Source: Escherichia coli
GTDB taxonomy: Bacteria > Pseudomonadota > Gammaproteobacteria > Enterobacterales > Enterobacteriaceae
Assembly: GCF_003334765.1 (NCBI RefSeq)
Contig: NZ_QOWT01000015.1
Direction: 5' to 3' (one strand)
Length of the DNA stretch: 64,000 nucleotides
How positions within the stretch are numbered: the first letter of the stretch is position 1; each line of letters opens with the position of its first letter. A program made the position numbers and the translations under genes. Positions 10,540-31,125 of this stretch are shown here, piece by piece. The notes under the pieces were generated by a model. It searched no databases. It was not told the DNA's origin and saw nothing but the letters and a program-made list of their open reading frames with translations.

Positions 10540-10615
10540 TTAAGCTAGAATAGCCACGGGTGCTTGAGACTGTTTGTCTCAGGTATTCACCGAAAGGCAG
10601 ACAGAGAAAAGCCCC
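10540..10615 (-). ncRNA. sokA: Putative Sok-type antisense RNA of the hokA locus (approximate position)
   Basis: Inferred only from hok/sok architecture: the antisense RNA lies opposite the hok mRNA leader, roughly 50-120 nt upstream of the hok start. The region contains inverted repeats (GCTTGAGACTGTTTGTCTCAGG). Boundaries not determined. Confidence 0.2.
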
Positions 10616-10660
10616 ACCTGACTATAAATCAAAGTTGGAAATCAACACAGGAGGCTGGGA

Positions 10661-10813
10661 ATGCCGCAGAAATATAGATTACTTTCTTTAATAGTGATTT
10701 GTTTCACGCTTTTATTTTTCACCTGGATGATAAGAGATTCACTGTGTGAATTGCATATTAAACAGGAGAGTTATGAGCTGGCGGCGTTTTTAGCCTGCAA
10801 ATTGAAAGAGTAA
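10661..10813 (+). CDS. hokA: Hok-family type I toxin (50 aa)
   Basis: Hand-translated (too short for the ORF track): MPQKYRLLSLIVICFTLLFFTWMIRDSLCELHIKQESYELAAFLACKLKE; GGAGG SD 6-10 nt upstream; single transmembrane helix plus conserved Cys typical of Hok/Gef. Confidence 0.85.
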   Translation: MPQKYRLLSLIVICFTLLFFTWMIRDSLCELHIKQESYELAAFLACKLKE

Positions 10814-10999
10814 GAGTCTTCGGCGGGAAATTATTCCCGCCTTACTTACGGCGTTGCGCATTCTCATTGCACCCAAATTTATTCTTCACAAAAATAATAA
10901 TAGATTTTATTACGCGATCGATTATTTATTTCCTGAAAACAAATAAAAAAATCCCCGCCAAATGGCAGGGATCTTAGATTCTGTGCTTTTAAGCAGAGA

Positions 11000-11212
11000 T
11001 TACAGGCTGGTTACGTTACCAGCTGCCGGGCCTTTAGCGCCGCTTTCGATGGTGAAGGACACTTTCTGACCTTCGTCCAGAGATTTGTAACCATCGTTCT
11101 GGATAGCAGAGAAGTGTACGAACACATCTTTAGAGCCATCGTCAGGAGTGATGAAGCCGAAGCCTTTGTCAGCGTTGAACCATTTTACGATACCAGTCAT
11201 TTTACCGGACAT
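11000..11212 (-). CDS. cspA: Major cold-shock protein CspA (70 aa)
   Basis: ORF track; [38 protein letters not shown]... with the RNP1 motif KGFGFI. Confidence 0.97.
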
Positions 11213-11410
11213 AGTGTATTACCTTTAATAATTAAGTGTGCCTTTCGGCGATATGGCGTGCTTTACAGATTTTGAAGCGTTAAAGGAATGTGCACTACGA
11301 GGGGTATCAACGATAACTCTTGAAGGGACTTGCCTTACTACACTGCTTTAATGGTCTGTACGTCAAACCGTTGATGTGCATTAAGCCACGCATTGGCGGG
11401 TGATGCAACA
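11213..11410 (-). promoter_or_regulatory. cspA long 5' UTR (~159 nt) with cold box, plus core promoter
   Basis: Reverse strand reads ...GGCTTAATGCACATCAACGGTTTGACGTACAGACCATTAAAGCAG...; cold-box element TGACGTACAGA at ~11351-11366; -10 CTTAAT just upstream of the inferred transcript start (~11371). Confidence 0.75.
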
Positions 11411-11492
11411 ATTATTTTTCATATTTATGATTAATCGGTTGGAAAACGGTCCTGTCATCAGGACCGTAAACAGCAATAAAGTGGATAAAAGT

Positions 11493-11783
11493 CTATTCCA
11501 TCAACTGCTTACTTAATGCCGGGTTGGCTTGAATCAAACGCATCAATTTTAGTTCGGCACTTGAAGGCTTCACGCGTCTGGATTCCCATTCCTTTACCAT
11601 GGCGACTGATACGCCCAAAACCCGGGCGAAATCATCGATTTTTAATCCTGTCCCTTTTCGTAACTGCTCAATTTCGGTACAGGACGTTGTTCTGTGCGTC
11701 AGGGTAATTTTCTGCGTTTCATCTTTAAAAACAATCTGTTCCAGGCTGCTCAACAGCTCATGCATTGGATCTTTATATTCCAT
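11493..11783 (-). CDS. yiaG: HTH (XRE/Cro-like) transcriptional regulator YiaG (96 aa)
   Basis: ORF track; MEYKDPMHELLSSLEQIVFKD... with an HTH segment IDDFARVLGVSVAMVKEWE. Confidence 0.9.
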   Translation of the reverse strand: MEYKDPMHELLSSLEQIVFKDETQKITLTHRTTSCTEIEQLRKGTGLKIDDFARVLGVSVAMVKEWESRRVKPSSAELKLMRLIQANPALSKQLME

Positions 11784-20785: not shown

Positions 20786-22477
20786 ATGAGATACATCAAA
20801 TCGATTACACAGCAGAAGCTGAGCTTTTTGCTTGCAATCTATATTGGCCTTTTTATGAATGGCGCGGTTTTTTACCGCCGCTTCGGCAGCTATGCGCACG
20901 ATTTTACCGTCTGGAAAGGCATTTCTGCTGTTGTTGAACTGGCCGCCACCGTACTGGTGACCTTCTTTTTACTACGTCTTCTTTCGCTGTTTGGCCGCCG
21001 CAGCTGGCGTATTCTGGCATCGCTGGTGGTGCTCTTTTCCGCAGGTGCCAGCTATTACATGACCTTCCTTAATGTGGTCATTGGTTATGGCATCATCGCT
21101 TCCGTCATGACCACCGATATCGACCTGTCAAAAGAAGTTGTTGGTCTGAACTTTATTCTCTGGTTAATCGCCGTTAGTGCATTGCCTCTTATCCTTATCT
21201 GGAATAACCGCTGTCGCTACACCTTGCTCCGACAACTGCGAACCCCAGGGCAGCGTATTCGCAGCCTGGCGGTCGTCGTACTGGCGGGTATTATGGTTTG
21301 GGCACCGATTCGTTTGCTGGATATCCAGCAGAAGAAAGTGGAGAGGGCGACCGGCGTTGATTTGCCGAGTTATGGCGGTGTCGTAGCGAACTCTTATCTG
21401 CCATCAAACTGGCTTTCTGCGTTGGGGCTGTATGCCTGGGCGCGGGTCGATGAATCTTCCGATAATAATTCATTGCTTAATCCGGCGAAGAAATTCACTT
21501 ATCAGGCACCGCAAAACGTTGATGACACTTATGTCGTGTTTATCATCGGTGAAACCACGCGTTGGGACCATATGGGTATTTTCGGCTATGAGCGTAATAC
21601 CACGCCGAAACTGGCCCAGGAGAAAAATCTGGCGGCGTTCCGTGGTTACTCCTGTGATACCGCAACCAAACTCTCACTGCGTTGCATGTTTGTACGTCAG
21701 GGGGGCGCGGAAGATAATCCGCAGCGCACATTAAAAGAACAGAACATTTTCGCGGTTCTGAAGCAGTTAGGATTCAGTTCTGACCTCTACGCTATGCAGA
21801 GCGAAATGTGGTTCTACAGCAACACGATGGCGGACAACATTGCTTATCGTGAGCAGATTGGTGCGGAGCCACGTAATCGTGGCAAGCCGGTAGATGATAT
21901 GTTGCTGGTAGACGAAATGCAGCAATCGCTAGGGCGCAACCCGGATGGTAAGCATCTGATCATTCTGCATACCAAAGGTTCGCATTTTAACTACACCCAG
22001 CGTTATCCGCGTAGCTTCGCGCAGTGGAAGCCGGAATGTATTGGTGTTGATAGCGGCTGTACCAAAGCGCAGATGATCAACTCCTATGACAACTCGGTGA
22101 CCTATGTGGATCACTTTATCTCCAGCGTGATTGATCAGGTTCGCGATAAGAAAGCGATTGTGTTCTACGCAGCTGACCACGGTGAGTCAATTAATGAACG
22201 CGAGCACCTGCACGGCACGCCGCGTGAACTGGCACCGCCGGAGCAGTTCCGCGTACCGATGATGGTCTGGATGTCAGATAAATATCTGGAAAATCCGGCC
22301 AATGCGCAGGCGTTTGCGCAGCTGAAAAAAGAAGCCGACATGAAAGTGCCACGCCGTCACGTAGAGCTGTACGATACCATCATGGGTTGTCTTGGCTATA
22401 CTTCACCGGATGGTGGAATTAACGAAAACAACAACTGGTGTCACATCCCGCAGGCAAAAGAGGCAGCGGCTAACTAA
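20786..22477 (+). CDS. eptB: Kdo2-lipid A phosphoethanolamine transferase EptB (563 aa)
   Basis: ORF track 20753..22477; start at [16 protein letters not shown]...; N-terminal TM helices plus C-terminal sulfatase-like domain. Confidence 0.9.
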
Positions 22478-22568: not shown

Positions 22569-22902
<334 letters not shown>

Positions 22903-22990
22903 CGTAGGCCTGATAAGACGCGTCAGCGTCGCATCAGGCAAATGTGCCGGCCATTGTCGGATGCGGCGCGACCGCCTTATTCGACCTACA
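22903..22990. repeat. REP / BIME palindromic element pair
   Basis: AGGCCTGATAAGACGCGTCAGCGTCGCATCAGGC and CGGATGCGGCGCGACCGCCTTATTCGACCTAC match the E. coli REP consensus family. Confidence 0.75.
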
Positions 22991-25200: not shown

Positions 25201-25300
25201 GCCTGATGCGCTCCGCTTATCAGGCCTACGAAAATTCTGCAATGTATTGAATTTGCACGATTTTGTAGGCCGGATAAGGCGTTAACGCCGCATCCGGCAT
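25201..25300. repeat. REP / BIME element in the dppA-dppB intergenic region
   Basis: GCCTGATGCGCTCCGCTTATCAGGCCTAC ... GTAGGCCGGATAAGGCGTTAACGCCGCATCCGGC: inverted REP pair. Confidence 0.8.
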
Positions 25301-31057: not shown

Positions 31058-31125
31058 AGAGAAAACCCCCGCACGTTGCAGGTATGCACCTGACAACACC
31101 ACGGGGGCTAATCTTGACTCTAGAC
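31058..31125 (-). ncRNA. rdlD: Rdl-type antisense regulatory RNA opposite the ldrD leader (approximate boundaries)
   Basis: Reverse strand reads GTCTAGAGTCAAGATTAGCCCCCGTGGTGTTGTCAGGTGCATACCTGCAACGTGCGGGGGTTTTCTCTC: a GC-rich hairpin plus U-run terminator ending ~31058, about 50 nt upstream of the ldrD ATG, as expected for ldr/rdl loci. Confidence 0.45.

Follow-up and report, generated by a model that had tools for sequence, protein, structure and literature searches.

Few genes of E. coli are transcribed as strongly as cspA, and the stretch of DNA analyzed here (64,000 nucleotides in all, hereafter the window) carries a copy of it whose upstream region raises two questions: whether its promoter and long leader are those of the reference gene in every part, and whether the leader by itself acts as the RNA thermosensor of CspA translation, as proposed in a sequence-only reading of positions 11213..11410 that gave no strand for the cspA features.

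The cspA locus and its promoter

The cspA element lies on the minus strand of the window. Alignment to K-12 MG1655 (reference segment 3716000-3724000) showed 0 differences over 10942..11492, an interval comprising the yiaG-cspA spacer, promoter and leader together with the CDS and its terminator. Between the yiaG stop and the cspA terminator, the window does not differ at any base from the experimentally studied K-12 cspA mRNA thermosensor (RF01766; Giuliodori et al. 2010; Zhang et al. 2018). The two are identical in promoter, cold box, upstream box, Shine-Dalgarno (SD) sequence, downstream box and terminator, leaving no difference in the element, and the gene order glyS-hokA-cspA-yiaG-yiaF-ghrB was that of K-12 read backwards. 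The Rfam model RF01766 (cspA thermoregulator; gathering score, 78 bits) matched 11372..10945 on the minus strand across model positions 1-428 of 428, with 500.8 bits and E = 3e-141. The matched RNA is the mRNA of a CspA-family gene, the ORF at 11212..11000 being NP_418012/WP_000014594 (100% DNA identity), and it contains the 5′-proximal cold-box stem-loop of the family as a 6-bp GGUUUG/CAGACC stem at nt 3-19. We regard it as almost certain that the element is the reference K-12 cspA promoter and leader, real, intact and already known. The interval 11213..11410 holds the leader and the core promoter through the −35 hexamer, and the UP element and the coding-region part of the sensor fall outside it. 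The individual features are:

10948..10975, minus strand: cspA intrinsic terminator with a 12-bp stem and T run (terminator scan, Rfam); mRNA 3′ end near 10945
11000..11212, minus strand: cspA CDS, 70 aa (ORF list, K-12 alignment; RefSeq protein WP_000014594.1)
11180..11200, minus strand: downstream box ATGACTGGTATCGTAAAATGG, within the cspA CDS
11213..11371, minus strand: cspA 5′ untranslated leader, 100% identical to K-12 MG1655
11222..11225, minus strand: SD sequence AAGG (nt 147-150); A148, G149 and G150 invariant in 47 leaders
11237..11249, minus strand: upstream box GCCGAAAGGCACA with a GCC-GAAA-GGC tetraloop hairpin, conserved in cspB, cspG and cspI
11264..11269, minus strand: UCUGUA (nt 103-108), putative alternative long-range partner of the cold-box 3′ arm (predicted cold-type fold)
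11280..11286, minus strand: putative anti-SD segment CCUUUAA (nt 86-92), partner of UUAAAGG in the closed 37 °C form (Rfam consensus helix, ViennaRNA warm-type fold)
11353..11369, minus strand: cold-box hairpin GGUUUG-ACGUA-CAGACC (nt 3-19), from folding, alignment and an Rfam consensus with the same 6-bp stem
11355..11365, minus strand: cold box proper TGACGTACAGA, 11 nt (exact sequence match)
11371 (159-nt UTR) or 11372 (160-nt UTR, 428-nt mRNA), minus strand: putative transcription start, placed by K-12 identity
11380..11385, minus strand: −10 hexamer CTTAAT, 4/6 to consensus and non-consensus at −12 and −11 (PMC2613000)
11386..11388, minus strand: TGn extended −10 motif (TGG), directly before CTTAAT (sequence; PMC2613000)
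11403..11408, minus strand: −35 hexamer TTGCAT (sequence; PMC2613000)
11409..11434 (boundaries approximate), minus strand: AT-rich UP element ATTAATCATAAATATGAAAAATAATT, identical to K-12, with its role taken from the literature

The claim that a ~159-nt 5′ UTR is intact upstream of cspA was borne out for 11213..11371, since the pairwise alignment to a characterized cspA leader called for by the sequence-only reading gave 100% identity to K-12 MG1655, with no substitutions in the cold box, upstream box, SD sequence or start codon. The cold box at 11365..11355 (TGACGTACAGA) was likewise unchanged relative to K-12, as had been proposed. Published UTR lengths are 159 nt (PMC6719143) and 160 nt with a 428-nt mRNA (PMC6386945, PMC9947658), the start of the RF01766 model falls at 11372, and a start 7-8 nt downstream of CTTAAT would be carried over from K-12 (Tanabe et al. 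1992, as cited in PMC2613000). Identity to K-12 is also the ground on which the temperature response and CspA feedback would be assigned to this locus.

At 11408..11380 the promoter has TTGCAT and CTTAAT 17 bp apart, with TGn just before the latter; this is the make-up of the extended −10/UP-element σ70 promoter PcspA. The composite TTGCAT-N14-TGN-CTTAAT occurred once in the window against 0.01 expected from shuffles, and the CTTAAT at 11385..11380, rightly described as an intact −10, lies within this unique match; CTTAAT alone, with 30 copies in the window, was not significant. Mitta et al. are said to have described, in 1997, a role for the UP element at the cspA promoter. Such a role is also described in 10.1101/289264; the −35 TTGCAT and the −10 CTTAAT with its non-consensus −12 and −11 positions are named as PcspA elements in PMC2613000, which also cites Phadtare and Severinov (2005) for the requirement of TGn for PcspA activity. 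A generic σ70 consensus scan called no promoter for cspA, because TTGCAT matches at 3/6 positions and CTTAAT at 4/6 (lacking the A at position 2), and activity depends on TGn and the UP element. The missed PcspA reflects a limit of the generic scan and is not evidence against the promoter, and negatives of that scan weigh little.

Directly upstream of the UP element and 27 nt past the yiaG stop, we found a hairpin, CGGTCCTG-ATGA-CAGGACCG, followed by TTTT (11443..11466, minus strand), with the same bases in K-12. It is probably the yiaG terminator, shielding cspA from read-through; the terminator scan was silent on it because it has only 4 T. Two small ORFs that overlap the leader, one on its own strand (minus, 11307..11411) and one on the other (plus, 11238..11351), were dropped, there being no support for either, and the former begins upstream of the cspA transcription start. 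In RefSeq, the gene for the 70-aa protein WP_000014594.1 goes by cspA (“RNA chaperone/antiterminator CspA”) in some genomes and by cspE (“transcription antiterminator/RNA stability regulator CspE”) in many others, NZ_CP019777.1 (L003) and NZ_CP019778.1 being among the records concerned; this split is an annotation inconsistency, not biology.

The only difference from K-12 MG1655 in the vicinity is the lack of IS150 (insJK), which in MG1655 lies between hokA/mokA and sokA. The hokA/sokA toxin-antitoxin locus is uninterrupted in the window (10558..10813, plus strand), which therefore comes from an E. coli strain other than MG1655; NCTC86 and many further strains have 1.1-kb stretches identical to it. 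Features recorded there and further along the window are:

10558..10663, plus strand: sok RNA (Rfam match)
10661..10813, plus strand: HokA ORF, 50 aa
22569..22642, plus strand: tRNA (Rfam, above gathering score)
22680..22813, plus strand: RtT RNA element, after the tRNA (Rfam, above gathering score)
22907..22986, minus strand: naRNA4 (Rfam, above gathering score)
25222..25264, minus strand: ES036 sRNA (Rfam, above gathering score)
31060..31125, minus strand: rdlD antitoxin RNA (Rfam, above gathering score)

Conservation of the leader and its pairing partners

The 11-mer UGACGUACAGA is the sequence that we take to be the cold box as named by Jiang et al. in 1996, an assignment also supported by its conservation in the paralogue and leader alignments. 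Counting both strands of the 64-kb window, TGACGTACAGA had a single exact copy, against ~0.03 expected of a random 11-mer over 2 x 64 kb. Allowing up to one mismatch gave 3 matches against 0.57 expected, a number reached in 1/100 shuffles; the two additional copies were TGACGCACAGA at 11691..11701 and TGACGTACAAA at 21689..21699, both on the minus strand. The former sits within the yiaG CDS, on the same strand as the true cold box and 326 nt upstream of it, and equals the cold-box variant of leaders L062, L081 and L088. It is probably a chance occurrence because it lacks the GGUU/CC hairpin arms.

Within the species, the 248 bases upstream of the ATG were found in 5423/5426 complete E. coli genomes; identity was ≥99% in 4640 of these and in no case under 95%. 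The diverged alleles of NU14 (98.8%) and CUPF09 (95.2%) carry leader changes only at ~nt 82-100 and nt 136, with cold box, upstream box, SD sequence and ATG unchanged. For more distant relatives, one genome per species was scanned with the downstream-box 26-mer AAAATGACTGGNNNNGTAAAATGGTT, an anchor outside the helices under test. This yielded 118 usable upstream fragments, of which 49 besides the window had nhmmer homology to the leader; 46 distinct sequences were aligned, giving 47 rows with the window, and among the contigs listed are Escherichia, Citrobacter, Enterobacter, Klebsiella, Pectobacterium, Serratia and Erwinia. The 26-nt pattern was also present in contigs labelled Phascolarctobacterium, Clostridia and Izimaplasma (L007, L026, L031, L034, L059, L063, L064), which had no ATG 9 nt upstream of the pattern, no cold box and no upstream box; these matches likely reflect the conserved KMTG.VKWF coding sequence rather than a common leader.

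Across the 47 leaders, G3-G8 (GGTTTG) and C14-A17 (CAGA) were invariant and T103, C104, T105 and G106 nearly so, and the five cold-box loop bases varied (ACGTA, ATATA, ACGCA, TTACA, GAATA, AAAGA, ATTCG and others). The local cold-box hairpin was paired in 98.9% of the alignment cells, the two long-range cold-type helices in 96.2% and 85.3%, and the anti-SD helix in 69%; the four core pairs between UCUGUA and the cold-box 3′ arm were kept in 44-46 of the 47. The upstream-box hairpin was 100% paired, with compensatory changes at 2/3 of its pairs, and the only other compensatory changes fell in some central pairs. Both structures exceeded slid controls (71-74% versus 35-43% paired), a comparison to be read with the knowledge that they were derived from the window sequence, which itself favors them. 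Because the key helices are invariant, covariation is uninformative here and speaks neither for nor against either fold, and the conservation of pairs would signify compatibility rather than proof.

Given this pattern, it is quite possible, though somewhat less likely than not, that the 11-nt cold box is conserved neither as a sequence motif nor as a protein-binding word. The fixed unit may instead consist of the arms GGUUUG/CAGACC and a second partner, UCUG(U), ~90 nt downstream, with the 5-nt loop, and in it the center of the classical cold box, left free; it would form a two-state pairing switch shared by the whole family and not peculiar to E. coli. Both the stem-loop (Xia et al. 2002) and the two pairings (Zhang et al. 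2018) have been published before, and the breadth of the arms-plus-partner conservation in 46 other Enterobacterales leaders might be an only mildly new point.

The paralogues cspB, cspG and cspI of E. coli share many of these elements. Like cspA, they have long leaders of ~145-160 nt (PMC6719143), and all three carry the upstream box GCCGAAAGGC (GCCCAAGGGC in cspI), the downstream box and a TGn −10 of the same kind (TGn-GTTAAT, beside TGn-CTTAAT in cspA); cspB and cspG of K-12 have the cold-box arms GGUUUGA-nnn-ACAGAC found in cspA. Their leaders differ from that of cspA in the loop of the cold box and across most of the central part (71% mean column identity, with many gaps), and they occupy other loci, cspB and cspI lying in the Qin prophage.

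Predicted folding and the extent of the thermosensor

With ViennaRNA we folded the nt 1-187 fragment across temperature and the full 427-nt mRNA at 10-42 °C. Two competing folds were predicted for nt 1-187. The cold-type fold has one long interrupted helix, formed by UACAGA (nt 12-17) with UCUGUA (nt 103-108) and by GG.UG with nt 112-117, and its SD sequence lies in a weak A-U hairpin. The warm-type fold has the local GGUUUG/CAGACC hairpin, CCUUUAA (nt 86-92) paired with UUAAAGG (nt 144-150), and the AUG region paired with nt 73-79. The two were predicted to cross near 28 °C, the cold-type being favored by −5.8 kcal/mol at 10 °C and standing at +2.8 at 37 °C; the probability of the long-range cold-box pair in the 187-nt ensemble dropped from 0.90 at 10 °C to 0.04 at 37 °C. 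The SD was unpaired in the fragment with a probability of 0.31 at 10 °C and 0.03 at 37 °C; the in silico equilibrium ensemble of the full-length RNA gave 0.00 at all temperatures. Equilibrium folding of the full mRNA at 10-42 °C showed no switch: at each temperature the minimum, by 6.6-9.1 kcal/mol, was the closed form, which combines the cold-box hairpin with the anti-SD helix and has the leader zipped onto the CDS, as in the Rfam consensus. On this model, the cold form would have to be a kinetically trapped co-transcriptional fold, as published (PMC6386945, PMC9947658).

These results bear on an equilibrium “zipper” RNA thermometer contained in the 5′ UTR and independent of the coding region, in favor of which stands the in silico crossover of the 187-nt fragment near 28 °C. 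However, with the coding region included, the closed form was the predicted minimum throughout; in published probing, mRNA fragments <190 nt have one structure that is unchanged by temperature, and the 37 °C form requires the CDS, the 5′ UTR pairing with the coding region (C232-G326) (PMC6386945, PMC9947658). The 5′ UTR alone supports no translation at 15 °C, and the 5′ UTR with the first 9 codons is necessary and sufficient for cold translation (PMC6386945). We rejected such a thermometer, which is very improbable, on the full-mRNA folding, and published chimera and probing data had already largely refuted it. The switch predicted for the fragment is at odds with the single structure seen by probing at 10-37 °C (PMC6386945), so the nearest-neighbor model is right only qualitatively. 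Even less credible, to the point of being virtually excluded, is that the leader is a degenerate copy or that of a paralogue (cspB, cspG or cspI) instead of that of cspA proper: the shared cold-box arms, upstream box and downstream box, together with the “cspE” label in many RefSeq genomes, could suggest it, but the 100% identity to K-12 cspA and its flanks, the same neighbors and the divergence of the paralogue leaders all speak against it. This reading and that of a chance occurrence were rejected on the K-12 identity, the paralogue divergence and the rarity of both the cold box and the composite promoter.

A third reading, which we consider quite possible though somewhat short of an even chance, is that the cold box is not a translational thermosensor at all, its job being stability of the mRNA in the cold and late negative feedback by CspA, with translation controlled by the SD-proximal region and the first codons. 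In its favor, the title of Xia et al. (2002), cited in PMC1636342, links the cold box to mRNA stabilization; a long tandem of stems emanating from the cold box at 10 °C likely prevents degradation (PMC9411577); CspA binds the cold box in late adaptation according to the figure 2 legend of PMC4496569; cold translation needs no more than the 5′ UTR and nine codons mentioned above; and the SD partner in the predicted folds is nt 86-92, not the cold box. On the other hand, the two roles appear coupled, as the choice of cold-box partner determines in the predicted folds whether masking of the SD sequence by nt 86-92 can occur, which would make the cold box part of the same switch. This reading complements the main explanation and rivals only the equation of the cold box with the translational sensor. 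The published role of the cold box is mRNA stabilization and CspA feedback, not SD masking; the SD sequence is masked by CCUUUAA (nt 86-92).

The designation of the leader as the RNA thermosensor of CspA translation holds in substance, given the full-length RF01766 match and the K-12 identity, and is too narrow in scope, for the sensor is the entire cspA mRNA and not just its leader (PMC6386945, PMC9947658), with which the folding here agrees. In the proposed mechanism, which is taken from the literature and is consistent with our folding, with no contradicting evidence, the cold-box 3′ arm (ACAGA) of the nascent ~190-nt RNA would pair with UCUGU (nt 103-107) far downstream, placing the SD sequence in weak A-U/G-U helices. 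This fold, formed during transcription, would persist in the cold, allowing efficient translation of a stable mRNA. At 37 °C it would rearrange to the local 6-bp cold-box hairpin, with CCUUUAA (nt 86-92) pairing with the SD region and the leader closing onto the CDS, and the closed mRNA would be poorly translated and short-lived. CspA protein would later bind its own mRNA, resulting in feedback. The cold-box pairing with distant downstream sequence agrees with the in vivo DMS data of Zhang et al. (2018) as described in PMC9411577, namely a 6-bp cold-box stem at 37 °C and distant downstream pairing at 10 °C. Temperature-dependent structure and translation would be expected of the present allele from its 100% identity to the probed one (Giuliodori et al. 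2010; the 2023 study, PMC9947658; Zhang et al. 2018, via PMC9411577).

Relation to other thermosensors and significance

Staphylococcus aureus cspB and cspC thermoswitches have a 5′ UTR that alternates between two mutually exclusive folds, the cold one favoring translation (PMC8034633); the likeness to cspA is taken here as an analogy. ROSE, fourU and hsp17 thermometers resemble cspA in that temperature-dependent mRNA structure governs access to the ribosome-binding site, but their polarity is opposite, with a single hairpin melting at high temperature (PMC4477652), whereas cspA combines alternative folds, kinetic trapping and the coding region.

Our analysis established the sequence identity, family membership, motif positions, conservation of both pairing partners and in silico bistability of the element. 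The cspA locus makes no open question testable; its relevance lies in annotation, as the strand, promoter, transcript boundaries and regulatory parts of cspA are now fixed in the window. Since the allele is the reference one, published K-12 results on cold induction, mRNA thermosensing and pCold-type expression vectors carry over to it directly.
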